Positions 9,610 to 64,000 of a stretch of DNA of 64,000 nt are shown piece after piece. The stretch comes from Candidatus Zambryskiibacteriota bacterium (GTDB lineage: Bacteria > Patescibacteriota > Minisyncoccia > Phycocordibacterales > DATDWN01), in NCBI GenBank assembly GCA_003173855.1, contig PPGI01000010.1, positions 62,304 to 126,303 on the forward strand, in the 5' to 3' direction. Position numbers and translations under genes: made by a program. The first letter of the stretch is position 1. Each line of letters begins with the position of its first letter. The notes beneath the pieces are model-generated. The model had not been told where the DNA came from. It searched no databases and worked only from the letters and a program-made list of their open reading frames with translations.

Positions 9610-9648
9610 CTTTGATATAATAATTCTATTAAAAGCTAAATAATTAAT

Positions 9649-10041
9649 ATGTGGTCAATTTTAGTAACAGCAATCGTTTTATTTGCCTTCGGTGCATTGT
9701 GGTTTACTGTGCTCTTTGGAAAAACTTGGGCTAAGCTCATGCAATTTCCGCAAGATATGGCGGGGATGTCAAAAAAAAGCATGACCAAGTCACTAGTTCT
9801 AAATTTTATTCTTAATTTGATTATTGCTAGCGTAGTTTACTATCTTTTCCCAGCAATTTTAGCTACTTCATATTCTGAATTTCTGAAGGTCATTTTAATA
9901 ATTTGGCTTGGGTTCTCATTCCCAATATATGCAAATCAGGTGTTATGGGAGGGAAAGTCATGGAAGCTTCTTATTTTAAACTCGGCTCAAGGGATTATTT
10001 CATTTATTCTTGCTAGTTCAGTTATATACTACATGCAGTAA
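9649..10041 (+). CDS. Hypothetical membrane protein (4 TM)
   Basis: Hydrophobic 130-aa ORF. Confidence 0.45.
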   Translation: MWSILVTAIVLFAFGALWFTVLFGKTWAKLMQFPQDMAGMSKKSMTKSLVLNFILNLIIASVVYYLFPAILATSYSEFLKVILIIWLGFSFPIYANQVLWEGKSWKLLILNSAQGIISFILASSVIYYMQ

Positions 10042-10065
10042 CTGTGGATAAGCCATTTGACATAT

Positions 10066-10094
10066 TTGACAGGATTTTAACGTTCGTATATACT
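10066..10094 (+). promoter_or_regulatory. Candidate sigma70 promoter of the rpoBC operon (tandem TTGACA, then TATACT)
   Basis: TTGACA at 10057 and at 10066. TATACT lies 17 bp after the second copy. Confidence 0.4.
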
Positions 10095-44473: not shown

Positions 44474-46306
44474 TTACTGCAAGGATTGAATTCCTTGGGA
44501 GACAGTAACAACTGGAACACCTTTAGTAACTAGATAATCAACAATTTGATTAAATATTGCCGGGGTAGTGCTAAATTGATTTCCGCTGTTATTAACTTCG
44601 TGTATTGCAAGGATAAGCCAGGTTTTATTGGCTGCAGCCTGGTCAATCCAAGCTTTTACTTGAGCAAAAGTTATATTAGAAGTTACGCCTTCACGCTCAA
44701 GCTGATATCTGTCTGATGTCGGAGTAACGAATCCATCAAGTGTTGCCACGGCATTATTAAAGCCAGCATCTTTAACAATTTGAATAGTTATTGAATCGTA
44801 GTCACCATATGGATAAGCAAACGACGTTATTGGCCCGACATTTAATGCGAGCAAATCATTTCTTGAACCCTGGATTTCAGTTTGTTGGTCAGCAGGAGAA
44901 AGTTGTGTTAGGAAAGGGTGAGTTTGGGTGTGCGCGCCGATTTCATTTCCCATTGCATAAATTTGTTTGATTTGACTTTTACTCATGAAGTCTGGAAAGC
45001 CATCGTCCGCAGTTTGCCTACTAACAATATAGAATGTTCCATTTACTCCAGCCGACTGCATTTTTGGAATGGCATTTTGGAATTGTGACAGCCAACCATC
45101 ATCGAATCTAAGAGTGACTGCTCCAGTCGAGAATACTCCGGAAACTCCAGATTTTTTAACAACGGAAACATTATCAATTGTTAAACTACCAACGCCTTCT
45201 ATTAGATGAAAGACAGTTACACTTTTAACCGCTTGGCTAACGCTGAAATCGACATTCTTTGTAGTTGGAGTACTTGCTGCTGGAAGACTAGCAATATCCT
45301 TATAGGTAATTGTTCCGTCATTGTTAATGAACTGGACAGTGATCAAACTTGAAATATTCGATTTATATGTATCAGAGTAAGTATAAATTCCTTGAGTTAC
45401 AGGAACTGGATCAAACCACCATTTAGCATCTCCAGTTGTAAAAGATGTGACGTTTATTGTTGCAGAATTTCCGCTGCCAAGTGAGGTTCCGGGATAAACA
45501 AATTGTCTAGTGTTTGTGCCCCAGCCACCTTTGTTCCAACCTTGCGGCAATCCGTTTGAACCCGGAGTTTCAAAATTACCGTTTGAAACAAGATTACCGT
45601 CAGAGCTCGTTGTCGTAATTTTATTTAAGGAGAAATCATCAATTGATAGGCTTCCGTTTGATTCGATCAAGTGAAAAACTGTTAACGAAACTACATTAGC
45701 TGGAACAGTAAAGGTTACATTATTTTGTTGGTAAGTTGAACTTGGATTAATAAATGCAACATCTTTATATACAAATGTACCATCACTCAGTTTGAATCTG
45801 ACATCAATTACTGTCGGTACATTTGAAAGTGAATAATCAGATAATTGGTAATTATCTCCCGGTGAAACTGCGACATCATCGAAGTACCATTTTGCGTCTC
45901 CGCTTACAAAATTTGTAATAGTTACTTGAGCAGCCTTAGTATCAGTGTTGCCATTCACAGGGTAAGTAAATGTTCGCGTGTTGCTGCCATAACCGCCCTT
46001 GTTCCAATTTGCTGGACCGCCAGTCGTTGTTGTGTTTTGAAAGCTTGGATTTGGAACAAGATTTGGTCCAAGTGTCTGGTTTGATACAGCTTGAGTTTGA
46101 AGTGTTGACGAAGTATTTTGAGTAGTAAGTTTTGATTGATTAGTTGATAATGGAGTGATCGGGTTGTTTAACCGTGATTTTCTTACTTCGGGAGTTGAAC
46201 TGCCTTCAACTTTTGGAGACTTTGCTCCCAGGGCAGTTTGTCCAGAAATAAGAGCAAACAAAAGCAGTACGCTCAACATTATATTTTTTTTATTTTTCTT
46301 AATCAT
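44474..46306 (-). CDS. Secreted polysaccharide deacetylase (CE4/NodB) with two N-terminal carbohydrate-binding-like repeats
   Basis: Repeats GDAKWYFDDVAVSPG and GDAKWWFDPVPV. C-terminal TLRFDDG...HTQTHP NodB motifs. Confidence 0.65.
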   Translation of the reverse strand: MIKKNKKNIMLSVLLLFALISGQTALGAKSPKVEGSSTPEVRKSRLNNPITPLSTNQSKLTTQNTSSTLQTQAVSNQTLGPNLVPNPSFQNTTTTGGPANWNKGGYGSNTRTFTYPVNGNTDTKAAQVTITNFVSGDAKWYFDDVAVSPGDNYQLSDYSLSNVPTVIDVRFKLSDGTFVYKDVAFINPSSTYQQNNVTFTVPANVVSLTVFHLIESNGSLSIDDFSLNKITTTSSDGNLVSNGNFETPGSNGLPQGWNKGGWGTNTRQFVYPGTSLGSGNSATINVTSFTTGDAKWWFDPVPVTQGIYTYSDTYKSNISSLITVQFINNDGTITYKDIASLPAASTPTTKNVDFSVSQAVKSVTVFHLIEGVGSLTIDNVSVVKKSGVSGVFSTGAVTLRFDDGWLSQFQNAIPKMQSAGVNGTFYIVSRQTADDGFPDFMSKSQIKQIYAMGNEIGAHTQTHPFLTQLSPADQQTEIQGSRNDLLALNVGPITSFAYPYGDYDSITIQIVKDAGFNNAVATLDGFVTPTSDRYQLEREGVTSNITFAQVKAWIDQAAANKTWLILAIHEVNNSGNQFSTTPAIFNQIVDYLVTKGVPVVTVSQGIQSLQ

Positions 46307-46336
46307 ATTTTTTTATTAGATTATTAATGGTTAGCT

Positions 46337-47203
46337 CTATGGGGACATAGCGCTAAAATTTTTAAATTTAACATCCATAAAATCAGTTCGAATTCCAACA
46401 TTTCCGGATGAGACTATAGGTTTTGTACCTGATAAAGTTTCGGAATCAACTACATCTAAAACCAATTTCCATTCGCCAGAATCAGTAAAATCAATAAAAA
46501 ATTGAAGTTCAACTTTTGTTGGGTCAATATTTTTAGCAATTAATTTTTCACCAATCCATTTTTGTGTTGGTAATAAAATTGGATTTGAATAATGATCGTA
46601 ATTTTTATTATCAATAAATGTGCTTGAGGCCAAAGTTGTATAAACTCCATTTATTTTTTTCTTGATTACAGCTGTACCGTCAACACGCATCCCGGCATAA
46701 TAAAGATTATCTCCATCTAAATATCGGCTCATAAGTAATACGCCATTCGACATATTACGGTTTGGGCTTCTACTTAAGTGATAATTCTCAATTTGAAAAA
46801 ATAATGATACGTCAACATCTCCCCAGACTTCTGTATTAATCAATCTAAAAATATTTTGCGGGTGAAGACCTTGGTCCGTATCCACAGGATTATTTTTTCT
46901 GTAAAGTGTTTTCCAAGGTGATTGAGCCGGAATGTCATTTTGTAATGTTTGTCCTATGCCATCTTCAACATAAAAAATTCCACCTGAATTTAACCACCAG
47001 CAATGTTCCCACGAATCATTTTTTGCATCCGATTCTTCTAAAACCCCCTCGGTAAATTGATTGCAATTTTCTGGGATGTTTGATGATCCTCCAGAATAAA
47101 GAATTTTTCTCGATGGAAATCCAAAGAGGGACAGAATATAATAAATCCCAATAATTTGAGCGAAGAGTATAAAGAAAGTTTTTGATGCAATTAATGAGTT
47201 CAT
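46337..47203 (-). CDS. Secreted lectin/LamG-like protein (paralog of the 42297 N-terminal domain)
   Basis: WWLNSGG...GLHPQNIF...GMRVDGTAVIKKKINGVYTTLA aligns with the 627-aa protein. Confidence 0.5.
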   Translation of the reverse strand: MNSLIASKTFFILFAQIIGIYYILSLFGFPSRKILYSGGSSNIPENCNQFTEGVLEESDAKNDSWEHCWWLNSGGIFYVEDGIGQTLQNDIPAQSPWKTLYRKNNPVDTDQGLHPQNIFRLINTEVWGDVDVSLFFQIENYHLSRSPNRNMSNGVLLMSRYLDGDNLYYAGMRVDGTAVIKKKINGVYTTLASSTFIDNKNYDHYSNPILLPTQKWIGEKLIAKNIDPTKVELQFFIDFTDSGEWKLVLDVVDSETLSGTKPIVSSGNVGIRTDFMDVKFKNFSAMSP

Positions 47204-48789
47204 GGCTCGATTGCTTTAACTGTTAAGTTATCAATTTCAACTTGGCTGTTTCCTGGAGTTGCATCCCAAGTTTTAATTCCAATTCCGCCGTGTGACAATG
47301 ATGGATCAAGAAAATCTGTCTGGGTAATCACGTTGCCATTAATTAGGCATTGGACACTACGGGCAACAACCCGCATGCCAATTCTGAATTGACTTTGGCC
47401 AGGATTATATGAATTGGTATTTCCAGCAATCACTCGATCCTCGCCATTTTTCACTTGTTCAATGTGGACAAGATCGTTCTTAAAATTGCATGCTGTTAAA
47501 TTTTTATCATCTGCATATCGAGAAGAGAGATAAATATTATTTCCTTTAATCCAACGAACTTGTGCGCTAATTTCATAGTCAGTCCAATCATCAGTTCCAT
47601 CGAGGACAACCGTGCTTCCTGTTCCATCGGGTAGGGCACTAATAACCATTTTGTTATTTTCCAAAGTCATTGTTCCCCAGTTCGTGTTAATCCAGCCGTC
47701 AACATTGGTAAAATTAGCGGAAAATGGCAAGGTTTTTGCTTGGCCAGAATTAAATTCCTTAATCAGATCGTTTCCTGACCAATGAGGAGAAATTCCGATT
47801 CTCTTGATCATAAATGAATTTTGACTAGGAGTTAGCGGATAATTTTGACTATATCGGTAATTGTTCGAATATTGATAAAAATTAAGTGGGTAAATATTTT
47901 CTGCTATTGGTACTATAGTTTTTTCAGCATCAGGAAAATTTACTGTCGAATATCCATAATCTCCAAATGGAAAGGCGAAAGCTATAATTGGTTTGCCAAA
48001 TGTTTCCTGAAGATTTATTTTTGATTGCAATAGATCATTTCTTGTTCTGTCACTAAATTCTGAAACTGACTCAACTCTTCCAAAATTTGAAAGCCATAAT
48101 TTGTTTGAGAAAAAATGTCCCTTATTACCTTGATCATCAATAAAATAATTTGAGTGTGATGAATATCCATGAGACTGTATCTCCCACTCATTGGTACTTG
48201 CCATTTTTTTGAGCTCATCGAGAGACAAATAATAATTGCTTGTTCCTTCAAGTGAATATTTATCAATGACAAACATTACGGCATGATAATCAAGCGAACG
48301 CAAAATTGGATCAGCAGGGTAGTAGCTGTCTTTTCGACCATCATCAAAAGTCAAAAGAAATGATTTTGGGGGGAGTTTTTTTGTGCCTTGCATGAAATCA
48401 TAAAAATCTTGCATTGTAATAGTTTGCCAACCATTTTCTTTAAGTGTTTTCATCTGATCCCAAAATGTTGCGAGATCAATATTTGTCGCTTCTCCTTCGT
48501 TGTCAGAAGTTGCTGGTCCACCAAGCACCCCGTGGTAGAGAAGTACTGGAATTGATCGAGCATATTGTTCGGTCGTGGTTGAATCACCCATAACGTGTCC
48601 GGAAATGACCATTTCCTTCAAGTTGTAGGGGATAACATAAGAATATGATTTAAGATAATAGGATTTGTAATTGGCAAACAAGTGTTCATTTTGAAAGTAA
48701 ATAAACATGCCAATTCCAAATATGGCAATAATCGTAAAACTCCAGAGAATTTTTTTATTTAATCCGGTTGATGTTGCAAAATAAACCAT
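47200..48789 (-). CDS. Membrane-anchored polysaccharide deacetylase (CE4) with a C-terminal beta-sandwich domain
   Basis: LLYHGV and LTFDDGRKDSYY NodB motifs. N-terminal TM. Confidence 0.6.
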   Translation of the reverse strand: MVYFATSTGLNKKILWSFTIIAIFGIGMFIYFQNEHLFANYKSYYLKSYSYVIPYNLKEMVISGHVMGDSTTTEQYARSIPVLLYHGVLGGPATSDNEGEATNIDLATFWDQMKTLKENGWQTITMQDFYDFMQGTKKLPPKSFLLTFDDGRKDSYYPADPILRSLDYHAVMFVIDKYSLEGTSNYYLSLDELKKMASTNEWEIQSHGYSSHSNYFIDDQGNKGHFFSNKLWLSNFGRVESVSEFSDRTRNDLLQSKINLQETFGKPIIAFAFPFGDYGYSTVNFPDAEKTIVPIAENIYPLNFYQYSNNYRYSQNYPLTPSQNSFMIKRIGISPHWSGNDLIKEFNSGQAKTLPFSANFTNVDGWINTNWGTMTLENNKMVISALPDGTGSTVVLDGTDDWTDYEISAQVRWIKGNNIYLSSRYADDKNLTACNFKNDLVHIEQVKNGEDRVIAGNTNSYNPGQSQFRIGMRVVARSVQCLINGNVITQTDFLDPSLSHGGIGIKTWDATPGNSQVEIDNLTVKAIEP

Positions 48790-48798
48790 AATTTTTGA

Positions 48799-50163
48799 TT
48801 AACGTGTGCCCCAGCGGCTGTCACGGATTTTTAAAATGGCGTACGGCAATTGCCATGCAAGAATCAAACTATAGAATGCTGTGGAAACTGAACCAGAAAG
48901 CCAGCGATTGTCTCCGGTGTATCGGTAATAGTAAAGACCGTAGATTAATGTCATTAAGAGTAAGCCGCTGAAATAATAAAGAGGAACAATTCCGCTATTA
49001 ACTGGGTGCCAAATTAAGGTTCGAATGAGAACAAATGGAGCAAGAAGTGGCAAGATAAATCCAAGATAAAACGAAAGACTCATTAGTAAATTTTTTCTCC
49101 ACATGAAAAAACATGCCATAAAACTTTCTCTGAACCATGATTTTTTCCAGCGAAGCTGTTGTTTCATATAGACTTTGAAATTGTCTGGAACAAAAGTGTG
49201 AGCGATTGAATCAGGAGCAAAAACAGTGTCAAATCCATGTTTCAGCACCCGATTGGTAAGACTTCGGTCATCACCATATGTACATTTGACCCCGAGAAAT
49301 TTTTGGTTTGTCCATTCATCAAGCATTGGTAAAATTACTGATCTTCTGTAAGCAGCAAGACATCCAGAGCAGCAAGTTACTGAACCAAAAAGAGCTTCAG
49401 CAGATTTGTAAGCTTTAAAAGCTACGTAATAACGGACTGATTGCATTCGAGTCAAAAAATTTGTTTCGGCATTTGCTACAAGTGCTTGGCCAGCGACTGC
49501 ACCGACGTTCGGCAGAGAAAAATATTTGACCATCGTTTTAAGAGCTTCCGGTTCAATAAAACTATCTGAATCGACAAACAAAATAATTTCTTTATCAGAA
49601 ATTCTGGTACATTCCGCCATCCCATCTCTTTTCCCGCGATTTATTTTCCAATCAACAACGATTACGTTCACGCCTTCAAGTGCTGCTAGGCGCTTTGCTT
49701 CATTCATTTCCTCGAGAGTGTTGTCAGTTGAACCGTCATTAATGGCGATAATGTCGAATTTATCTTTTGGGTAATTTGCTCTTGTCATTCGCATTATAGT
49801 TTCTCTTATGTGCTCACCTTCGTTTTTTGACGGCACAGCAAAGGAAACTGTCGGTTCGTAGTTCGGATCAAAAGAAGTTTCAGTGGGTGAATAAAAATAT
49901 GACAGAGCAAAACGAGAAATAACATAAGAGGCTACCATTAAGCTATAGCCAAAAAATATTATCTGGCCTTGCATCCATTGGATAGACAAAATTTTTATTA
50001 TCATTACTGAAAAAATCAAAACGTAGAAAACCACTGCAGCAAATGCTCTTGTTTTTGCTTTTCTATCAATTCGCGTATTTGCGAGGGCAATATTATTATT
50101 TGCAATTGTGTAACTCATTTTTTTATCGGCCAATTCCTTTGTAAGAGACCTGAGAATCTTCAA
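48799..50163 (-). CDS. Processive family-2 glycosyltransferase (PgaC/IcaA/cellulose-synthase-like)
   Basis: INDGSTDNT and VDSDSF DxD motifs, QQLRWKKSW (QxxRW). Multiple TM helices flank the catalytic domain. Confidence 0.75.
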   Translation of the reverse strand: MKILRSLTKELADKKMSYTIANNNIALANTRIDRKAKTRAFAAVVFYVLIFSVMIIKILSIQWMQGQIIFFGYSLMVASYVISRFALSYFYSPTETSFDPNYEPTVSFAVPSKNEGEHIRETIMRMTRANYPKDKFDIIAINDGSTDNTLEEMNEAKRLAALEGVNVIVVDWKINRGKRDGMAECTRISDKEIILFVDSDSFIEPEALKTMVKYFSLPNVGAVAGQALVANAETNFLTRMQSVRYYVAFKAYKSAEALFGSVTCCSGCLAAYRRSVILPMLDEWTNQKFLGVKCTYGDDRSLTNRVLKHGFDTVFAPDSIAHTFVPDNFKVYMKQQLRWKKSWFRESFMACFFMWRKNLLMSLSFYLGFILPLLAPFVLIRTLIWHPVNSGIVPLYYFSGLLLMTLIYGLYYYRYTGDNRWLSGSVSTAFYSLILAWQLPYAILKIRDSRWGTR

Positions 50164-51601
50164 AGATTTTTTTGTTTAAGCAATTTCGACCATCAATGAC
50201 TACTTGAATTCCATATTCACTAAGAAACTTTGGATTTAAAGTTAAAAATTCTCTATGAGCTGTTGCGATAATAATTGCCACAGCTCCAGTTAAGCTTTCG
50301 TCTAAGTTATTTGAGACAATTTCTTTCTTGACATATGGGTCGTACATATCAACATCAAAACCGTTTTGCCTCAATTCTTTATAAATTTCAAAAGATGGGC
50401 TTTCTCGAACATCAGAAATATCAGGCTTGTAAGATGCTCCAAGAACAACCACTTTTCCTTTCTCAATACCTCGTTTTTTTAATTCACGCTTTAGAAGTTT
50501 TATCGTATAACTCGGCATGTAGTTATTGATTTCTCGAGCTTGCATCAAAAATTTGTGTTCAAAACCATTTTTCTTTGCGTGCTCGATTAAGTAATACGGA
50601 TCAACAGGGATGCAGTGGCCGCCCACACCGCAACCTGGATAGTGAGCAAGAAAACTAAATGGTTTTGTCGATGCTCCACGAATTACGTTTACAATATCTA
50701 TACCTAAAACTTCAAATGACATTGCCAATTCATTTACAAAAGCAATGTTGATATCACGAAATGAATTTTCAACAATTTTGACTGCTTCAGCTTCTTTAAT
50801 GGAAGCCATCGGAGTTACTTTTCCTTTGCCTAAGATGCTTCGGTAAAACACTAAAGTTTTTCTAAGGCCTCTCTCATTTAAACTGCCTACAACACGGTTA
50901 ATATTTTCTAATGTCCAAGTGCTGTCGCCAGGATTAATTCGTTCTGGACAATGGGATAAATCAAAATCAATTCCTGCTTTTAATCCTGAACTTTTTTCTA
51001 AAATTGGAAGAACAATTGATTCACAAACACCTGGATTAACTGTTGATTCAATTATTACGAGATCTCCCGGTTTCAATTCTTTTGCAACACTTTTTGATGC
51101 TTCTATTAAAGGAACGAAGTCAGGTTTTGAATTCTCATCGATTGGGGTAGGGACGCAAACAATAATTATTTCTGATTCTCTTAAAAAAATAGGATTAGAA
51201 TTAACAAACAATTTGTTCTTTTTAAGAGAGTATCCAATTTTTTCGTCAACGAAAGGAGAGATTTGCCTTCGAATTAACTCTACTTTTTCTTCGTCAGTGT
51301 CTATTCCGATAACAGAATATCCATTTTCTTTTGCTAAAAGCGCTAAGGGCAAGCCAACATATCCTAAGCCGACAATAGCTACATTCTTATTTTTTACACC
51401 CTCTCTATTTCTTTGCTCCTTATCTTCTAAATTTAAATTTTTTTCGTAAGTCTCATGAATATTAAAATCTTTTATCTCAATCCCTTCGTTCTTTGTTGTT
51501 ACAGTATTCATTTTATTTTTTGTTAAATATTTATTAAAATTTCTCTCAGTATAAAGAAAAAAGATAAAGAATTTATGAAGCATTTGTAAGATTTTCTTCA
51601 T
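50123..51601 (-). CDS. UDP-sugar 6-dehydrogenase family (UDP-GlcNAc/ManNAc or UDP-glucose dehydrogenase)
   Basis: NAD-binding VAIVGLGYVGLPLA and catalytic GGHCIPVDP. The true start may be an internal codon, since the N-terminal ~70 aa are atypical. Confidence 0.7.
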   Translation of the reverse strand: MKKILQMLHKFFIFFLYTERNFNKYLTKNKMNTVTTKNEGIEIKDFNIHETYEKNLNLEDKEQRNREGVKNKNVAIVGLGYVGLPLALLAKENGYSVIGIDTDEEKVELIRRQISPFVDEKIGYSLKKNKLFVNSNPIFLRESEIIIVCVPTPIDENSKPDFVPLIEASKSVAKELKPGDLVIIESTVNPGVCESIVLPILEKSSGLKAGIDFDLSHCPERINPGDSTWTLENINRVVGSLNERGLRKTLVFYRSILGKGKVTPMASIKEAEAVKIVENSFRDINIAFVNELAMSFEVLGIDIVNVIRGASTKPFSFLAHYPGCGVGGHCIPVDPYYLIEHAKKNGFEHKFLMQAREINNYMPSYTIKLLKRELKKRGIEKGKVVVLGASYKPDISDVRESPSFEIYKELRQNGFDVDMYDPYVKKEIVSNNLDESLTGAVAIIIATAHREFLTLNPKFLSEYGIQVVIDGRNCLNKKIFEDSQVSYKGIGR

Positions 51602-54269: not shown

Positions 54270-55499
54270 CTACCACTTCTTGTCTCCGCCCTTGTCTCCG
54301 CCGTGATCTCCACCTTTGTCACCACCGTGATCGGGTGGTGGAGCGGGAGTTGGGTTTGGAGGCTGGACCTGTGGTGTGGCCTTTGCCTCATTGTTATTGT
54401 TGTTCGAATTCGAATTCTTTGACACAGCGTCTGAACTCGAATCTGCTCCGGCGGCTGCGCCGGCTGAGACTTTGCCGACATTTCCGCCATCTGCTTTTGA
54501 TTCGCCTCCAGTTGCCGTAACGTTTCCGTTTTTGGCACTTGAGTTTGAATTTGACTCTCCACCATTGCCGACACCGTTTGCGGTAACAGCTCCATTGGTG
54601 GCGTTGGCTTGTCCGCCGTTTGCCTGTGAGCTCGAACTTCCGTTAGCGCTCACATTACCGTTACTCGCACTCGCCTGTCCGCCGTTTGCTTGTCCACCAT
54701 TTGCTGTGTTGTTTACAACAACTGATGGTCCGCTCGATCCAGATCCGGTAGAACCCGAACTCGAGCTTGAAGTCGATGACGAACTTGAACTGGTTGCAGA
54801 CGCGCTGCCACCAGCTCCGCCTTGACCGCCTGTTGCATTTGCCGACGCTCCGGTCTGCGTTTGATTTACGTTGACAACTGGCGCCGGAATTTTCCCGATC
54901 GCTGTGGTCATCATTGACCCGATTTTCTGGGTCTGACCGGCGAGCGTTTTTCGAACAGCATCGACAGATGCTGTGTTGGCATTCACCGCATCGTAAATCT
55001 TGCCAGTGTTGTGAGCAGTGACAAGATTTGCGTATGCAGAGATTCCACCTTCGACTGTAAGAGCAAACAACCACTTGTTCGCTGTGCTTGTTGAGCCAGC
55101 GATTCGCTCTTGAGCACGTCGGCTTCGATCAGCGATTTCGTTACCACGCTTCAACTCTTCAACCACTGCAGTTGAATCGAAATTCACTTGCGGTGGTGGC
55201 GTTGCTCTCTGCAGAAGCAGAGCGAGTGCATCTCCAGTAAACGCTGGTTGCACTGGTGCCTGCGGATTTTCCACGTGGTTCTCGATCACGATCACAGGTG
55301 CGGCCGGGTGTTCCGCGGCAATGACTTCTGCTTTGGCACGCGCTCGACCACTTGTGACCGGTTTCTTTGCTTGTGTGCAGTCAACCTGAACAGTGATCTT
55401 TGATCCGTCCGGACAGGTGACTGTTGTCGGAGTGAGCTGAGCTTCCGCAAGATTTGAACTTGCGAATGCGAGCACGATAACGAGCCAGAGTTTCCTCAT
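54270..55499 (-). CDS. Secreted protein with a long Gly/Ser/Asn/Ala low-complexity region and a C-terminal HGGDKGGD repeat
   Basis: Signal peptide MRKLWLVIVLAFASSNLAEA. GC near 50%. Confidence 0.5.
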   Translation of the reverse strand: MRKLWLVIVLAFASSNLAEAQLTPTTVTCPDGSKITVQVDCTQAKKPVTSGRARAKAEVIAAEHPAAPVIVIENHVENPQAPVQPAFTGDALALLLQRATPPPQVNFDSTAVVEELKRGNEIADRSRRAQERIAGSTSTANKWLFALTVEGGISAYANLVTAHNTGKIYDAVNANTASVDAVRKTLAGQTQKIGSMMTTAIGKIPAPVVNVNQTQTGASANATGGQGGAGGSASATSSSSSSTSSSSSGSTGSGSSGPSVVVNNTANGGQANGGQASASNGNVSANGSSSSQANGGQANATNGAVTANGVGNGGESNSNSSAKNGNVTATGGESKADGGNVGKVSAGAAAGADSSSDAVSKNSNSNNNNNEAKATPQVQPPNPTPAPPPDHGGDKGGDHGGDKGGDKKW

Positions 55500-55510
55500 A
55501 GTTTCCTCTG

Positions 55511-56836
55511 CTATTGGACTAGCCCTAGAAGGGCAGCTGTTTGTCTTTGCTCCTTCTCAATTTTGTGGCGGATAAATCCACTCAAAACTGGAAGAGTTCC
55601 TTCGACTACTCCACTTACACCCCCGGTTGAGATTCCCAGTGCAACTGGAACACCGTAGGTTAAAGTTCCAAAGAGTAGTTTAGAGCCGAACGATTGTTGA
55701 CTCGGGTAAGTTGCGAGGAGTTTTCCATAACGCTTTTTTGATACGCTAGGAATTTTTTCCTCTTTGACTTTGGTTGCGTGATCTCGAAGGTCATTACTTC
55801 CGATTTCTGCAAAACGTTCTCCTCCGTGGTCAAAGACCACAGAAGAAGATTCTTGCACCGGAAGATCACGTGTCAGAACAACCTTGATTGCGTAGTTTCC
55901 ATCAGCGGTGTTCTCGATGATGGTAACTGTTTCTTTCCGATGCCAATTTCCATTCTCGTCTTTTGAAACGAGAAGTAGCGCCGGATGAGGTCCTTCTTTT
56001 ACGTCACGAAATTCTTTTCCACTAATGCGAATTTCGTAAACGCCCTTCTTTATAATTTTCAGTGAAGTTTTAGTTTCCGAAGCTATCACTCCACTACCAT
56101 CTTCGGATTTTGGATCCGGAGTCCTTTCCACTTCAGCACGAACATCATTCGTTCTGAAGGAGACCGAAACTGATCTTCCAAACGTTCCTGAGACGTACTC
56201 GGGAGCATTTGGTGTTTCCTCTACTGTCGTACCAGATTCAGGTGCCTGGGAAGTAACTTGGACAGTAGACTTCTCTGGCGAAACCTTTCGGGGTTTGCTT
56301 TGCACTTTACGTGCTACCTGAATTTTTTCTGGGTGCGGCAGATTGAACAAATCGCATGGAATCACAAGAGTCCAACCCACTTCGATGTGGTTTGGATTCC
56401 GGATCTCTACGATCCGTGATCCCACTTGCCTTGAAATAATATGGTAAGCGGAGAGCTCACCATAATAATCAAGAGCAATTTGTCCAAGCGTATCACCTTT
56501 GACCACTTCTCGTTCCAAGTTGCTGCAAGCATCTGGAGTAAGAGGTGTATCGGTGCTCTTCTTTGATGCTCCGGCTCTGCGGGCTTCAAGTTCTGCAAGA
56601 GCGGGGGCATCAATCTTTCTCTGTTGGGCTTTTCCTAATTCAAGTCCACCACCAAAGCCCAGCGCAAGAATTATTGCAGCAAGAACTGTTGCTGCAAGCG
56701 CTGAACCCAAAATGGTCTGCTTGATTCGTTCCCAACGGAGCCTTTCTCGGATCCTTGCCCATCTGTTTTCTACTACGATTACAGAGGGATTCTTACGGAC
56801 ACTCATTTGTCCACTCCTTCCCGAAAGTTTCGGCAA
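55511..56836 (-). CDS. LysM-domain membrane protein
   Basis: Cytoplasmic N-terminus, one TM helix, LysM (VKGDTLGQIALDYYG...GWTLVIP), and a C-terminal Gly-rich hydrophobic segment. Confidence 0.55.
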   Translation of the reverse strand: MPKLSGRSGQMSVRKNPSVIVVENRWARIRERLRWERIKQTILGSALAATVLAAIILALGFGGGLELGKAQQRKIDAPALAELEARRAGASKKSTDTPLTPDACSNLEREVVKGDTLGQIALDYYGELSAYHIISRQVGSRIVEIRNPNHIEVGWTLVIPCDLFNLPHPEKIQVARKVQSKPRKVSPEKSTVQVTSQAPESGTTVEETPNAPEYVSGTFGRSVSVSFRTNDVRAEVERTPDPKSEDGSGVIASETKTSLKIIKKGVYEIRISGKEFRDVKEGPHPALLLVSKDENGNWHRKETVTIIENTADGNYAIKVVLTRDLPVQESSSVVFDHGGERFAEIGSNDLRDHATKVKEEKIPSVSKKRYGKLLATYPSQQSFGSKLLFGTLTYGVPVALGISTGGVSGVVEGTLPVLSGFIRHKIEKEQRQTAALLGLVQ

Positions 56837-56873
56837 GAGCCTCTATCATCAACTTGTTTCCACTTAATAAAAC

Positions 56874-56892
56874 TGTCCCGGTTCCGGCAACA
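56874..56892. repeat. 19-bp direct repeat TGTCCCGGTTCCGGCAACA (copy 1)
   Basis: Exact 19/19 match with copy 2, 90 bp away, in the promoter region of the LysM gene. Confidence 0.6.
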
Positions 56893-56963
56893 GCTCATCT
56901 CATGGTCATTTTTGAAGATTTTGGTTTCCCGCACTTTCGAGATTCTTTTCTTTGTTTGTGTGA

Positions 56964-56982
56964 TGTCCCGGTTCCGGCAACA
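56964..56982. repeat. 19-bp direct repeat TGTCCCGGTTCCGGCAACA (copy 2)
   Basis: Exact 19/19 match with copy 1. Confidence 0.6.
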
Positions 56983-57066
56983 AAACACTATTTAAAGAAA
57001 GGAATGTACGAAAGAGTTTCCGCTTTCAAACGTTGATGTCGTGATTGTGGTTGTTAGGTCGCTTTC

Positions 57067-57777
57067 TTAGGCTGTCGGCGAGATTGCTCGAGCTGTTCTC
57101 TGCGATCTCGGTTTTCCAACCGTTCCGAGAACGATCTGCTCAGTCATATTCAAACGTGCTGACCAAGCAACTTCCACGTCTTCCTCGAGATTTTGGTTTT
57201 CGCTTGCTTTAAACAGTACTCGAGGATCACCATTTTTGATGAAGAAATCTGCGTTAGCGAACTTTCCTTTACCTGGATCTGCATTTAGAACAAACCTACA
57301 GTACACAGGTTTTTGCCCCTGAGCATAGTAGAAAGCTTTGATTTGCTCAAGTTCGGGATTTGTTATCCGAACTTTTTTTGTGTTCATGTAGATCAGTACT
57401 CCGAGAATAGTAGTAAGTATCAGAGTAATGATACTGCTGAACACAACTACATAATTTCTCGTTGACTGACTTTCTTCCCTGACCAGTTTTTCGATTCTGG
57501 TCAATCGATCGTTAGTTTTTTTCTCGAGAGCGACTTGTGAAGTCGAGAGCTGTTTTGCTCTAGTCTCACTTTTTTTGTCGATTTCATGAACCTCACTCGT
57601 CAGATCTTTTTTGACGGTGTTCAGATTTCGACGAGCTTCGGCCCGAACCGAATTGAGTTGCCGTACTGTGACGGCTTCGTCAGCTTCCGGTCTTCGAGCG
57701 TGCTGTGCCTCGAGCCTCGTATTTATTGCGAGGCAGGCAAGAATCGTGATGGTCGCGATCGTCAGTCTGCTTCGCAT
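57067..57777 (-). CDS. Hypothetical coiled-coil protein with a signal peptide and an internal TM helix
   Basis: SD GGAGAG before ATG. Coiled-coil region, then VVVFSSIITLILTTILGVLIY TM. GC near 50%. Confidence 0.5.
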   Translation of the reverse strand: MRSRLTIATITILACLAINTRLEAQHARRPEADEAVTVRQLNSVRAEARRNLNTVKKDLTSEVHEIDKKSETRAKQLSTSQVALEKKTNDRLTRIEKLVREESQSTRNYVVVFSSIITLILTTILGVLIYMNTKKVRITNPELEQIKAFYYAQGQKPVYCRFVLNADPGKGKFANADFFIKNGDPRVLFKASENQNLEEDVEVAWSARLNMTEQIVLGTVGKPRSQRTARAISPTA

Positions 57778-57946: not shown

Positions 57947-58918
57947 TTATTGGGTTTGATGGTCGTAAACTAGCCTTGAAATATCAGAAATATTTTTAGA
58001 AAGAATATTAAAATCCTGGCCACTTGTCATAACACAAAGAATGTAAGGGTTTTTATCATAAACAATTCCGCAATCATGCAGTTCTTTTTTTATTAGATTT
58101 CCGTTTGTATCAAATACTTGTCTTTCTCCAAATTTGTCAGCAATATCAATTGTTTCCGGTATTCCAGACCTTAGGCCTTGAGGGAAATCTTTGTAAGTCA
58201 TTAACTGCAAGATTTTTTCGGAATTTTCACGATTTATATAAGTACTATTGTAAAGAACACGTAAAAAAAGAGCATAAGTTCGTGTCGACATAAAATCTAA
58301 GGAGTCATTTGGAATATTGATATTCAAATCTTTGTACAATTCAGATAGTGAGTTAGCATTTATATTTTCGTGAAGAACAGTTAATGCGTTATTATCTGAA
58401 TAATCCAAAACGTAAGTAATCAGATCATCGAGAGTGTAAGATTTTCCAGGCACGATTTCTTTTTCAGGTTTAAAATATTCGGCTTGGTTATTATCAAATG
58501 AACCATCATAAGTAAATCTTTGTTTAAGAATTTCTGGATGAGATTCCGAATATTTTAGCGTATCAACGACTGTTGGAACTTTAAGCATACTTGCAGGAGA
58601 AAATGATTTGTTCATATCATATCCTGCCCAACCACTGCCTGAAAGACTTAGATAATAGATTGAAATGTTATTAGACGGATTTTTTGAAACATAATCTTTA
58701 AGTAGGGTGGAAAGATTTGTGTCTTCGTTATAAGAACGAGGTATATCAATGTTGCAGAGGAGAACAGGGTTAATGTATTTGTAACCACTTTCACGCAAAA
58801 CTTTAGGACGGATAATAAGAGGAGGTTTAATGATGTAACCAATACTTCCTCCGATTAAAAAAAAGACGCCATACAGTGCCCAAGTCCAAAAAGCTTTTCT
58901 TTTTATGAAAGTTATCAT
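57947..58918 (-). CDS. Class A beta-lactamase-like serine hydrolase (membrane anchored)
   Basis: SPASMLK (SxxK), YSDNNA (SDN), and KFG in place of KTG. N-terminal TM. Confidence 0.55.
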   Translation of the reverse strand: MITFIKRKAFWTWALYGVFFLIGGSIGYIIKPPLIIRPKVLRESGYKYINPVLLCNIDIPRSYNEDTNLSTLLKDYVSKNPSNNISIYYLSLSGSGWAGYDMNKSFSPASMLKVPTVVDTLKYSESHPEILKQRFTYDGSFDNNQAEYFKPEKEIVPGKSYTLDDLITYVLDYSDNNALTVLHENINANSLSELYKDLNINIPNDSLDFMSTRTYALFLRVLYNSTYINRENSEKILQLMTYKDFPQGLRSGIPETIDIADKFGERQVFDTNGNLIKKELHDCGIVYDKNPYILCVMTSGQDFNILSKNISDISRLVYDHQTQ

Positions 58919-58959: not shown

Positions 58960-59550
58960 CTAACTTTCAATTAATTTTGTATAGACGACTATCCTGTGAT
59001 CATCAGTTTTTTCAGCAGGAATCCAATTTCCATCACAAGTAATTAAATTGAGATATCGATCCCCGTTTCGGTTAAAAAGTATTTCGAGCGGTACATCTTT
59101 ATAATAATAATTTTGAATATCAAAGACTTTGAATTTTAATTTTCTGCCATTTTTTGCTTGAACATAAACTATATCCCCTGGAACCAATTTTTTTAAATTA
59201 ATAAAAACTGCCGGTATTCCTAGGCCATTATCAACATGCCCATCAATAACTGCGCTGCCAAGTTCTCCTGGCACTGTGCCGTATTTGTACCATCCTGTGT
59301 CAGCAAATTTTTTTGGTGTAGACATATTGCCTTTAAATGTAATGCCGACTTCTTCAACTACTGCATTAACATTTATTTTCGGAATAATAATTTGAATAGG
59401 GTGAGATACAGAAAAAGAAACGCTCTGAGCTGTTTGGGCCACAGGCGTTTCTTCTTGTGGGGAATAATATGTTGAACGAATTACAGTTACTGTCCCGATA
59501 ATTATTCCGAGAATGGCTATACTTATTCCAATTACTTTTTTCTGCATCAA
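58960..59550 (-). CDS. Sortase (transpeptidase)
   Basis: N-terminal TM. Catalytic His in AVIDGHV and Cys in LITCDG. Confidence 0.75.
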   Translation of the reverse strand: MMQKKVIGISIAILGIIIGTVTVIRSTYYSPQEETPVAQTAQSVSFSVSHPIQIIIPKINVNAVVEEVGITFKGNMSTPKKFADTGWYKYGTVPGELGSAVIDGHVDNGLGIPAVFINLKKLVPGDIVYVQAKNGRKLKFKVFDIQNYYYKDVPLEILFNRNGDRYLNLITCDGNWIPAEKTDDHRIVVYTKLIES

Positions 59551-59551
59551 C

Positions 59552-59809
59552 CTATTCTAACCCATAGTCTTTGGATTTAATAAGAAGTGTTAATCCAATT
59601 GCAACTAGAATAATTGCAAGAACAATCATTGCCGCGTTGCTTACGAGCATTCCTCCAAGACCTGTTGTTGGCACACCTGGTGTTGTTATTGGAGTTGGTG
59701 ATACAGGTGTTGGCGTTGTTGATGAGCTAACTTGAGCATTAACAATGCTTGCCCCAAGAATGCTTAACAAAGCAAAACCTCTGGTGAAAATTTTTTTAAT
59801 TTTGTCCAT
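59552..59809 (-). CDS. Miniature sortase-substrate-like protein (signal peptide + PT-rich stretch + VPTTG + TM + KSK tail)
   Basis: 85 aa. A C-terminal cell-wall sorting signal occupies most of the protein. Confidence 0.5.
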   Translation of the reverse strand: MDKIKKIFTRGFALLSILGASIVNAQVSSSTTPTPVSPTPITTPGVPTTGLGGMLVSNAAMIVLAIILVAIGLTLLIKSKDYGLE

Positions 59810-59877
59810 AATTTTTTGTTACTTTTTAGCTTGTAACTACTTAATGTTAACCAATACCAGTGAAGACAAAGTGAAGG

Positions 59878-61149
59878 TTATGGTATGGCTACTATGTGCA
59901 GTGTTACATTTACAACATCTCTGCTCGTTTGTCCTGTAAATGTGTAAGTTTTGTTTCCAGTGACATAAGGAACAATTATTGAACCAGTCCCAAAGTTTCC
60001 TTCTTTGTCAGTCGTTAGTGTCATTAGGGTGTTTCCATTAGAGGACATGATTACTTGTTCGTTTGAACCGAAATGATCTCCAGCAAAGTCATCGGTGTCT
60101 CCTTCAACTACTGTCGTTTGCGCTGCTACAACATGTGCACCAGAATTGTTGTTTACTCCGTCACCCTCAAATCTTGGATGATGATTAAGTTCACTAATCA
60201 GGTTTTGAATTTGAAGTCTCAATGCGTTCAGCTGGTTTTGTAATCCCTGAATTAAGTCTAGAAGGAATTGTTTATCGATGTCGCTAAGAGGAGTTGTTGT
60301 GCCCGTGACAGGAGGAGTTGTCGTACCAGTAACCGGTGGTGTTGTAGTTCCTGTAACTGGAGGTGTAGTTGTTCCTGTCCCGCCATTTCCTGGTGTTGTC
60401 GTTGCTGTTGTCGTTGCGTTTTGAATATTGAAGACATGAAGCATGATCATTTTGTCTGTGTCTGATGCCAGATTAAAATTCATTACTCCTGATGAAGTTG
60501 TGCCAATTAGATCTTGATCATCATTATTTGGTGCAATTTGATCTGGTGTAAACAAGACTGCGCCGAAGTGACTATTTGGAGATGGATTCGTTTCGTTAAC
60601 TGTCACTTGTGAACTAGTCGATGTTAGATTTAATTCGTAACTTGATGCATCAAGGCATGTTGATGAAGCTATCGTGCCATTTAGATCGATATCAACTCCA
60701 ATGGAAGATTCACAAATTTTGTTTGGAATGTACGTTCCATTATTTTTTAGAGTCTGTGTTGTTGTACCATTTGTGTTTTGGACTTGGAAATCAAAATTTG
60801 TTCGCGGTCCAGTAATGCTTCCCGACGGTGCAACATCACCAGGAATAGCGCTTGTTGGACAATTTAATTCTGAATTGAGGAATTTTCTGTAATAAGTCTG
60901 GCCAGCACCAAGATTTAAGAAGTCATTCAGATTTGTAATATTTGAATTACAAAGATGCTTCATAATCATAATGCTGTAAGTTGTTGTTGCGACAGACCCT
61001 GTGGTTGTGCTTGTTTGTTCTGTTGTAGTTGCATTAGTTGTGGTAGCCGTTTGGGCAAACAAGAGAGCCCCAGGGGATAGAAGTGATACAACAAGAGTTG
61101 TTGCAATGGCTGCTCCCATAAGCTTATTTTTTAATTTTTTTTGAATCAT
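59878..61149 (-). CDS. Secreted Thr-rich surface protein with TTTPPVTG x3 repeats and a coiled-coil
   Basis: Signal peptide. Three exact 8-aa repeats, each containing PPVTG. Confidence 0.5.
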   Translation of the reverse strand: MIQKKLKNKLMGAAIATTLVVSLLSPGALLFAQTATTTNATTTEQTSTTTGSVATTTYSIMIMKHLCNSNITNLNDFLNLGAGQTYYRKFLNSELNCPTSAIPGDVAPSGSITGPRTNFDFQVQNTNGTTTQTLKNNGTYIPNKICESSIGVDIDLNGTIASSTCLDASSYELNLTSTSSQVTVNETNPSPNSHFGAVLFTPDQIAPNNDDQDLIGTTSSGVMNFNLASDTDKMIMLHVFNIQNATTTATTTPGNGGTGTTTPPVTGTTTPPVTGTTTPPVTGTTTPLSDIDKQFLLDLIQGLQNQLNALRLQIQNLISELNHHPRFEGDGVNNNSGAHVVAAQTTVVEGDTDDFAGDHFGSNEQVIMSSNGNTLMTLTTDKEGNFGTGSIIVPYVTGNKTYTFTGQTSRDVVNVTLHIVAIP

Positions 61150-62701: not shown

Positions 62702-64000
62702 TTAATTTGGCATCAGGGATACACCATCTTTAATTGTTAGGATTTTAATTCCTGTTGAAGTGGCGTAATCAACTATCTGTTTAAAGAAGGTTGGTGTCAT
62801 GGAATATTCTCCTCCACTTGTATCTACTTGGTGAATGCAAATTATAAACCATTTTTTCTGAGCTTTGGCATCATCGATGTATTTTTTGATAGTTGAGAAT
62901 GGTGTTGAATTGACCACGCATGCGCTATTAAGTTTGTATTTGTCAGTAGTCGTACTTACTAAAGGAGTATTGATAACATCACGAGCATTTGTATATCCTG
63001 CAGTCTTTATGAGATTTACTACAGTGTCATTGTAATCTCCATATGGATAAGCAAATGTCGTTATTTTTGTTCCAGTCAAATTTTCAAGATAAATTTTTGA
63101 ATTAGTAATCTCGCTAACTATTTGGGTATTTGTAAGTTGAGTTAAATATGGATGGGTGATTGTATGATCTCCAATCTCGTGACCACGTTGCGAAATTTCT
63201 AAAACTTGAGCTGGTGTCATAAAACCCGGCTCACTATTTTGAATAACGCCTGAAGTTGTATAAAAAGTAGCTTTTATATTGGCTGCTTCGAGAACTGGAA
63301 GAACATTCGTGTACTGTGAATTCCAGGCATCATCAAAAGTAAATGTCATCATTCCTTCCGTCCAAGTTGGTGTAGTTGTTGGAACTGGAGTTGGTGTTGG
63401 TGTCGGGATTGGCGTCGGAGTAGGAGATGGTGTTGGAGTAGGAGTTGGTGTCGGGGTTGGCGGAGGAACTGGCGGAGTTGAAGAACTTATTTTTACTAAA
63501 GAATAATCATCAGTTGTCAGAGTTCCCTTATTTGATATTAAATGATAAATAGTCATAGTCATTTGTGCTGTTCCGTTTGGAACAGTGACATTTGTGCTTA
63601 ATTGTTTCCAAGCATTTGCTGAAGAGGGAATATAAGCGAGAAAAAGATAAGAATAATTTCCATTTGAATCTTTAAATTCTGCGTCAACTTCCGAAGTTGT
63701 GTTTGATTTATACCAATCGCTAAAAGTATATATTTCACCGGAAGCAACTTTAATTGAGCTAGAGGTCCAATGAGCATCGCCAGTAGAATTTCTTCCAAGC
63801 GTCACTGTAATGCCTTTCCCGTTATGACCAGTATCGGGATATTTAAAAGTGGGAACAGGAGATCCCCAATAACTTTTTGTCCAATTTTGTGGCAGAGAGC
63901 CAGAAGCTGCTTCAACAGATGGATTTAAAATTAAATTTGTATCCGCGTGAGCAATACTTGTGTTACTTTCAAAACCTAAAAATAAAATCGTTACAATCAT
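62702..64000 (-). CDS. Secreted CE4 polysaccharide deacetylase with an N-terminal carbohydrate-binding-like domain and Pro/Thr linker (start at window edge)
   Basis: TGDAHWTSSSIKVASGEIYTFSDWYKSN repeat type, PTPTPTP linker, TFTFDDAW...HTITHP NodB motifs. Paralog of the 44474-46306 gene. Confidence 0.6.
   Translation of the reverse strand: MIVTILFLGFESNTSIAHADTNLILNPSVEAASGSLPQNWTKSYWGSPVPTFKYPDTGHNGKGITVTLGRNSTGDAHWTSSSIKVASGEIYTFSDWYKSNTTSEVDAEFKDSNGNYSYLFLAYIPSSANAWKQLSTNVTVPNGTAQMTMTIYHLISNKGTLTTDDYSLVKISSSTPPVPPPTPTPTPTPTPSPTPTPIPTPTPTPVPTTTPTWTEGMMTFTFDDAWNSQYTNVLPVLEAANIKATFYTTSGVIQNSEPGFMTPAQVLEISQRGHEIGDHTITHPYLTQLTNTQIVSEITNSKIYLENLTGTKITTFAYPYGDYNDTVVNLIKTAGYTNARDVINTPLVSTTTDKYKLNSACVVNSTPFSTIKKYIDDAKAQKKWFIICIHQVDTSGGEYSMTPTFFKQIVDYATSTGIKILTIKDGVSLMPN

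Follow-up and report, generated by a model that had tools for sequence, protein, structure and literature searches.

A sortase gene that lies beside the gene for its substrate has a counterpart in the class GN ('marine') sortases of TIGR03784, each presumably paired with its own target protein. Precedents of another kind are the Actinomyces oris glycoprotein GspA/AcaC, a glycosylated sortase substrate anchored by SrtA, and the Braun lipoprotein Lpp, a very small protein whose role is covalent attachment to peptidoglycan. We know of no sortase substrate with a mature part of 10-30 residues. Class F sortases have a single characterised member, the housekeeping SrtF of Propionibacterium/Cutibacterium acnes, which was reported to use LPXTG (PMC8225981). 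In actinobacterial class F sortases, Asn was reported at the position of the catalytic Arg (PMC8703055, PMC6998099), and the physiological role of the class was stated as unknown (PMC13251363, PMC6998099). Sortases were also reported in more than half of the genomes of the Candidate Phyla Radiation (CPR) (PMC6744442). Here we analyzed a stretch of 64,000 nucleotides (nt) of contig PPGI01000010.1 from a Candidatus Zambryskiibacteriota bacterium, referred to below as the window, in which a sortase gene directly follows the gene for an 85-amino-acid (aa) protein made up of a signal peptide, a short mature part and a sorting signal. We think it reasonably probable that the two genes form a dedicated sortase/substrate cassette of Parcubacteria (Paceibacteria, CPR), whose product would be a short peptide, probably glycosylated, linked to peptidoglycan.

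The window comes from the chromosome of a low-GC bacterium (~35-37% GC) and carries rpoB, rpoC, dnaG and rpoD. Three open reading frames (ORFs) lie head to tail on its minus strand, at the positions given in the initial annotation: a gene for a 423-aa secreted two-domain protein without a wall anchor (59878..61149), the 85-aa gene 68 nt further downstream (59552..59809), and the sortase gene (58960..59547), which encodes 195 aa when read from its ATG. The sortase may start at an in-frame TTG at 59550, one codon upstream, which gives 196 aa, and the gap between the stop codon of the 85-aa gene and the sortase start is 1-4 nt. The 85-aa gene and the sortase gene apparently share a transcript, and their translation is probably coupled. 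A consensus scan found no terminator-like site on the minus strand between the three genes. Since promoter and terminator counts over the whole scan were not above those of shuffled sequences, the operon structure was judged from gene spacing only. Scans of the window for tRNA genes and Rfam families gave no matches.

The 85-aa protein begins with a signal peptide (residues 1-25, VNA|Q), followed by a mature part (Q26-T49) that runs into the motif VPTTG (residues 46-50; 59660..59674, minus strand). A hydrophobic transmembrane segment (LGGMLVSN...; about residues 54-77) and the tail KSKDYGLE, with KSK at residues 78-80, complete the protein. It thus combines an N-terminal signal peptide with the motif, hydrophobic segment and positively charged tail of a sorting signal at the extreme C-terminus, as the initial annotation had described, and it is the sole ORF in the 64-kb window with xPxTG followed by a hydrophobic and basic C-terminus. 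By analogy with other sorting signals, cleavage is expected between T49 and G50. The predicted mature peptide, QVSSSTTPTPVSPTPITTPGVPTT, has 24 aa, is rich in Thr, Pro and Ser and contains no Lys. The extended signal around VPTTG reads T-T-P-G-[V]-P-[T]-T-G-[L]-G-G-x4-N, and the cognate recognition peptide predicted for the window's sortase is TTPGVPTTGLGGM.

This signal shares with the canonical LPXTG signal (PF00746, TIGR01167) the tripartite build of a pentapeptide (P, T and G at positions 2, 4 and 5), a hydrophobic segment and a basic tail. It differs from the canonical signal in that position 1 is V, T or A as often as L (Val in the window) and in that further positions are conserved (P-2, G-1, G+6, G+7 and N+12). 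The LPXTG anchor models PF00746 and TIGR01167 did not match the 85-aa protein even at E<=10, and relatives reached 14.0-14.3 bits, below the cutoffs of 15.9 and 20. The exact 85-aa sequence was not found in a catalogue of 15 billion proteins that does contain both flanking proteins of the same contig, and a search with the single sequence returned one relative only (P0001) and no match to itself; the gene is apparently uncalled in the deposited genome. The family of such short substrates, referred to here as mini-substrates, was detected through sortase neighbourhoods and a profile search.

We compared 80 fetched genomic loci with a homologous sortase, which together gave 86 sortase hits; loci are cited below by number (L001 and so on). 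At 60 of the 86 hits, corresponding to about 58 of the 80 loci, the sortase is immediately preceded on its strand by an ORF built in the same way, with a gap of -3 to about 290 nt. These ORFs encode a signal peptide, a variable passenger, the extended signal TT-P-G-x-P-[NTSD]-T-G-x-G-G...N, a transmembrane segment and a basic tail. Conservation of the signal over the 60 adjacent substrates is high at P(-2) (51), G(-1) (55), P(+1) (59), T(+3) (58), G(+4) (60), G(+6) (55), G(+7) (49) and N(+12) (45). Position 1 is divided among V (16), T (14), L (13) and A (11), so that the motif of this sortase clade, with Leu in only 13 of the 60, is not canonical LPXTG. The tail after the motif measures 31-36 aa in 58 of the 60 substrates (range 28-40). 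The signal-peptidase site AxA|Q is shared by the substrates; A25, Q26, T49 and G50 are invariant in the alignment of mini-substrates (A2), all 22 of which have Gln as the first mature residue. Four closer relatives, with sortases 56-59% identical to that of the window, all carry a version of 72-88 aa with TPG-TPTT[GA], for example AQDVSTTTPG-TPTTG-LGG (L083), AQTTTPG-TPTTG-FGG (L085) and TPG-TPTTA-LGG (L086). The motif TPTTA of the last of these (L086:4734-4979), with Ala for Gly at position 5, recalls LPXTA signals.

Pairwise dN/dS values of the mini-substrate genes were 0.10-0.34, at dS from 0.65 to saturated, indicating that the 85-aa gene is under purifying selection. Because the arrangement recurs in about 58 of the 80 loci and the gene is under such selection, the 85-aa ORF is a genuine conserved gene and not a chance ORF. 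In a neighbour-joining tree of the sortases, both the motif variant and the passenger type are clade-specific: substrates with Cys repeats and [LF]PxTG all fall into one clade, [VT]PTTG minis are in the clade of the window, and TPNTG and APNTG are in others, while the minis as a whole are spread over several deep sortase clades. A looser motif expression used to annotate the tree mislabelled some tips (for example, GGNAA), and the motif calls of the locus survey are the reliable ones. All-against-all clustering of neighbouring ORFs showed that no neighbour of the sortase other than the substrate is broadly shared: the substrate is present at 50 loci, any other family at 19 or fewer. A reverse scan of metagenomes from the motif returned seven loci, of which one was spurious and one lay at a contig edge; the five that could be evaluated all had a sortase directly downstream. 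Adjacency therefore holds in both directions, and motif and enzyme co-vary, as expected of a cognate pair. A profile built from 22 minis found 123 protein clusters, those listed being 48-161 aa long and nearly all named 'hypothetical protein'. The initial annotation had regarded a lack of conservation in relatives as evidence against its proposal; the 85-aa ORF proved to be conserved and selected, with a motif that follows the sortase clade.

Several loci of the survey depart from the simple pair. Two to three paralogous sortase genes lie within 10 kb in L027, L053, L061, L062 and L070, and in L061 a further substrate bearing the same signal is encoded at 9648-10094. In L044 (4680-5447), the sortase ORF of 255 aa appears to be fused in frame to an N-terminal signal peptide and a Thr-rich stretch, as the result of either a true substrate-sortase fusion or a frameshift in the assembly.

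The enzyme matched PF04203 (Sortase) over profile positions 1-124 of 125, scoring 79.7 bits (cutoff 26.6; E 2e-22). It has an N-terminal membrane helix (residues 2-26) and a catalytic domain at about residues 50-193, and the catalytic residues His104, Cys171 and Arg185 are invariant across 36 aligned homologues. An AlphaFold2 (AF2) model has a confident sortase fold, with a predicted local distance difference test (pLDDT) score of 89.5. A Foldseek search with this model gave 112 PDB matches at E<=0.001, the best 50 of which were all sortases. The top matches were class C sortases (E 3e-10, 20-24% identity, TM score about 0.58), and classes A, D and E were nearly as good. A sequence search of the PDB returned only distant sortases at E 4e-6 or worse, and thus no close relative with a solved structure.

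The best NCBIfam model was NF033748 (class_F_sortase), with 118.8 bits, followed at a margin of more than 85 bits by the generic sortase model (31.6 bits), class C (27.8 bits) and class E (26.9 bits). The curated cutoff of NF033748 is 166 bits, which neither the window enzyme nor eight relatives (116-129 bits) reached; some of these relatives are named 'class F sortase' by NCBI. On the basis of the PF04203 match, the best although sub-cutoff score for class F, the catalytic triad and the fold, we filed the enzyme as a class-F-like sortase from a divergent Parcubacterial subclade. Nearly all of its homologues belong to Parcubacteria (Paceibacterota, Kaiserbacteria, Minisyncoccia, Nomurabacteria and Adlerbacteria), and an identical protein is present on a 221-kb NCBI contig. 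Like class F, the enzyme is a single-pass, N-terminally anchored cysteine transpeptidase with His, Cys and Arg, and several of its homologues carry the database label of that class. It differs in retaining the catalytic Arg, at which the actinobacterial enzymes are reported to have Asn. The adjacent motif is also unlike the LPXTG reported for P. acnes SrtF, being [VTA]P[NT]TG with PG before it and xGG after it. Class C (pilus) sortases provide the nearest solved folds, but at the low identity given above.

The segment between the signal peptide and the sorting signal is highly variable among the substrates. For the 51 substrates with a placeable cleavage site, the predicted mature length is 30 residues or less in 21 (minimum 10), 31-60 residues in 7 and more than 60 residues in 23. 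Those of 31-60 residues consist of Thr/Gly/Ser-rich sequence, and the longer passengers are of three kinds: low-complexity sequence, a triple Cys-repeat of about 100 residues, and passengers of 170-320 residues (up to 318 mature residues) that, judged by eye only, are beta-rich or possibly immunoglobulin (Ig)-like. The mature peptides of the minis, which are 10-37 residues long, contain 45% Thr, 11% Pro, 10% Ser and 10% Gly, and 24 of 25, including that of the window, lack Lys. The Cys-repeat substrates belong to one sortase clade and have three to five copies of a roughly 35-residue repeat, GCxSxxGYSxxTGxPCNG, for which no significant Pfam or NCBIfam match was found. They are encoded just upstream of the sortase in L039, L040, L050, L051, L057, L059, L068, L070, L071, L073-L076 and L080.

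In the mechanism that we propose, the steps of export, retention, cleavage and transfer are drawn by analogy from general sortase biology. The Sec pathway would export the precursor, whose signal peptide would be cut off after VNA to expose Gln as the first residue, and the C-terminal hydrophobic segment and KSK tail would hold it in the membrane. The membrane-anchored sortase would then recognise TTPG-VPTTG-LGG and cut between Thr49 and Gly50. Resolution of the acyl-enzyme by an amine of a peptidoglycan precursor would leave the 24-residue peptide linked to the wall. Because there is no folded passenger, this short peptide may itself be the functional product, its most plausible form being an O-glycosylated stub by which stem peptides of peptidoglycan are decorated or capped. 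We infer the cleavage site, the acceptor, the glycosylation and the physiological role from the analogy.

The pair works like a cognate sortase/substrate pair and mechanistically extends well-known sortase biology. As in the TIGR03784 pairs, the sortase gene is next to that of a cognate substrate with a lineage-specific motif variant, but the sortase class is another one, and those substrates are large whereas about half of the present ones have no passenger domain. Among the precedents for the product, GspA is much larger than the window substrate, and Lpp is lipidated and attached by L,D-transpeptidases, not by a sortase. In contrast to the substrates of class C pilus systems, the window substrate has neither a pilin domain nor a Lys nucleophile. 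The combination of a passenger-less substrate, the extended motif PG-xP-[NT]TG-xGG and a pair conserved across a CPR class differs from every case that we know of or found. A literature search on sortase substrates in Parcubacteria, Patescibacteria and CPR found no description of mini-substrates; the coverage of that search was incomplete, and novelty is not thereby proven.

Several observations weigh against the proposed cassette. About a quarter of the related sortase loci have no adjacent substrate, so the pairing is not obligatory, and with substrates surveyed around sortase genes, 'dedicated' is a provisional term. Neither the curated class F model nor the LPXTG-anchor models gave scores above their cutoffs, no glycosyltransferase was consistently linked to the pair in the neighbourhood comparison of the loci, and cleavage, acceptor and glycosylation are predictions rather than biochemistry. 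In addition, the residues after the cleavage site (G-x-G-G...N) are more conserved than the mature peptide, which could signal a function of the membrane remnant. The remnant (G-LGG...N-TM-KSK, TM being the transmembrane segment), or the uncleaved micro-protein, would then be a functional partner, regulator or sensor of the sortase, and release of the Thr-rich peptide would be incidental. The conservation of G+4, G+6, G+7, N+12 and the tail length agrees with such a role, as does the apparent translational coupling of the 85-aa gene to the sortase; in Streptococcus gordonii, a membrane kinase reportedly senses C-terminal peptides left by sortase A. We nevertheless consider it quite unlikely, because substrates with large passengers, whether Cys-repeat or larger and possibly Ig-like, end in the same signal and occupy the same gene slot, and the conserved residues on the P' side are more simply explained as an extended recognition and retention signal. 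That one slot holds passengers of 0 to about 320 residues and of at least three unrelated kinds, in genomes that are reductive as those of CPR are, could mean that the mini-substrate is an evolutionary intermediate or degenerate slot that gains and loses passengers and has little function of its own. An empty slot of this kind would hardly be expected to keep an intact signal peptide, motif and tail, a dN/dS of 0.1-0.3 and a Thr-rich composition, or to recur in several deep sortase clades, and we therefore give this explanation a low probability. The initial annotation had raised the possibility of a pilin-like unit polymerised by the sortase into a fibre, which the class C folds nearest to the enzyme and the adjacent substrate gene, as in pilus islands, might suggest. 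This now appears very improbable: 24 of the 25 mature peptides have no Lys, a folded pilin domain is missing, each of the 22 aligned minis begins its mature part with Gln, a residue prone to cyclise at the N-terminus, and the fold similarity to classes A, D and E almost equals that to class C. Finally, the 85-aa ORF might encode a small type-I membrane protein unrelated to the sortase, with VPTTG present by coincidence. The failure of the curated anchor models to recognise it and the absence of the exact protein from the catalogue would fit that idea; the presence of the motif P, T and G in 58-60 of 60 adjacent ORFs, the reciprocal adjacency and the co-variation of the motif with the sortase clade make it extremely improbable.

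A further proposal concerned the 423-aa protein, in which TTTPPVTG occurs in three exact and internal copies (residues 260-283; 60301..60372, minus strand), as the ORF translation confirmed. The PPVTG units had been suggested as an internal transpeptidation motif, at which the sortase would cleave or ligate. PPVTG does fit xPxTG, the gene is in the same apparent operon with a C-terminal module that is syntenic in the closest clade, and the amino-acid repeats are exact despite synonymous divergence of the DNA. Tandem Repeats Finder reported a period of 24, 3.8 copies and 79% matches, with the differences synonymous. With DNA copies only 79% matched, the array is not a product of recent slippage, which suggests that the peptide sequence is maintained rather than recently duplicated and leaves the alternative suggestion of a recombination-prone repeat weak. 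The repeats lie in a linker (residues 254-290) with pLDDT below 50 in the AF2 model, which is likely disordered. The homologous linkers are hypervariable, reading TPTPTPSPTP... in the syntenic L083 (a TP/SP linker) and TTTPPVG TTTPPTG or PPPPATTT elsewhere, so that the motif itself is not conserved (PPVG in some). An xPxTG sequence is present in 9 of 26 homologue linkers, at differing places, and this equals the expectation from composition (0.45 per linker, or about a 36% chance of at least one). The TTTPPVTG units also lack the PG prefix, the xGG suffix and a following membrane-retention segment. From the variability, the composition-level frequency and the missing flanks and retention segment, we conclude that they are ordinary Thr/Pro linker sequence and not sortase sites; that they are cleaved or ligated by the enzyme has an extremely low probability in our view.

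The 423-aa protein has a signal peptide (residues 1-32), a Thr-rich N-terminus and no anchor, and its AF2 model (pLDDT 80) shows a beta-rich domain (56-243), the linker, a helix (291-322) and an Ig-like domain (339-420). A fold search with this model gave only generic Ig-like matches, to which no function could be assigned. The protein is most likely a secreted, adhesin-like protein in its own right that is not anchored. In L082-L084 and a 470-kb JGI contig, which make up the closest clade, the mini-substrate is preceded by a gene for a protein of 435-449 aa. This protein has in common with that of the window only the C-terminal module of linker, coiled coil and Ig-like domain (tblastn, 3.9e-33), and its head is a CHRD domain. 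This module (window 59878-61149; L083:3247-4596) comprises a Thr/Pro linker, a helix of about 30 residues and an Ig-like domain that ends in PIP, with a conserved TDKEGNF, and its heads are either a domain without a Pfam match (291 representative homologues) or a CHRD domain. In the clade of the window it always adjoins the mini-substrate/sortase pair. Membership of the whole 423-aa protein in the conserved module was considered and discarded: synteny is limited to its C-terminal module (L082-L084), and in L021 and L060 it is found at a distance of 1.5-3 kb. Since the Thr-rich 'QT.TTT' that follows the signal peptide is also present in the 423-aa protein, the Thr-rich segment seems to serve this organism generally as a surface linker.

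If the proposed cassette is correct, it has several consequences. Class F sortases are among the most commonly annotated, and a conserved, adjacent and simple natural substrate would give a handle on their specificity and acceptor. A family of wall-anchored peptides of 10-30 residues, missed by current anchor models and gene catalogues, would add a new component to the poorly understood cell envelopes of CPR bacteria. The motif PG-xP-[NT]TG-xGG could become an annotation profile for mini-substrate genes and is a candidate orthogonal recognition sequence for sortase-mediated ligation. More speculatively, and with a probability that we consider rather low, Parcubacteria may employ the class-F-like sortase chiefly for the grafting of very short, Thr-rich (glyco)peptides to peptidoglycan, as a 'minimal proteoglycan' that caps stem peptides, and not for the display of proteins. 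In the clade of the window, the grafted peptide could also dock co-encoded, unanchored proteins that share the coiled-coil and Ig-like C-terminal module and differ in their heads (the domain without assignment in the window, CHRD in L083).

Downstream of the sortase, after 41 nt, lies a gene for a class-A beta-lactamase-like, membrane-anchored serine hydrolase (57947..58918, minus strand; PF13354 at 2e-28), which may be co-transcribed with it. Among the loci, the identical Logan contig L001 is the only one in which this gene also adjoins the sortase, and the gene is outside the conserved sortase/substrate module. A general functional link between it and the pair was rejected, the association being confined to the window. 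In other loci, a different beta-lactamase/penicillin-binding-protein-like serine hydrolase (SxxK) lies downstream in 14 (for example, L058:2854-3852) and GlmS lies downstream in 18, and these neighbours may form a loose peptidoglycan-related neighbourhood.

A high-GC island (54270-57777, minus strand) has a GC content of 0.44-0.50, compared with 0.30-0.41 across most of the window. Its ORFs encode 409 aa (Ser/Gly/Asn-rich and secreted, with a GGDKGGDH... C-terminus), 441 aa (a weak LysM match) and 236 aa (coiled coil/transmembrane). Because these three ORFs had no counterpart in the syntenic loci L082-L084, the island appears to be an insertion that separates the sortase operon from the polysaccharide genes. 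The latter, at 44474-51601 and 62702-64000 (both minus strand), form a surface-polysaccharide gene set of a UDP-glucose dehydrogenase, a glycosyltransferase family 2 (GT2) chitin/hyaluronan-synthase-like enzyme and three polysaccharide deacetylases with Thr/Pro linkers. A general functional link between the sortase pair and the dehydrogenase, GT2 and deacetylase genes was likewise discarded, since it is confined to the closest clade. Synteny of the set extends to L082-L084, in which ~3 kb separate it from the sortase.

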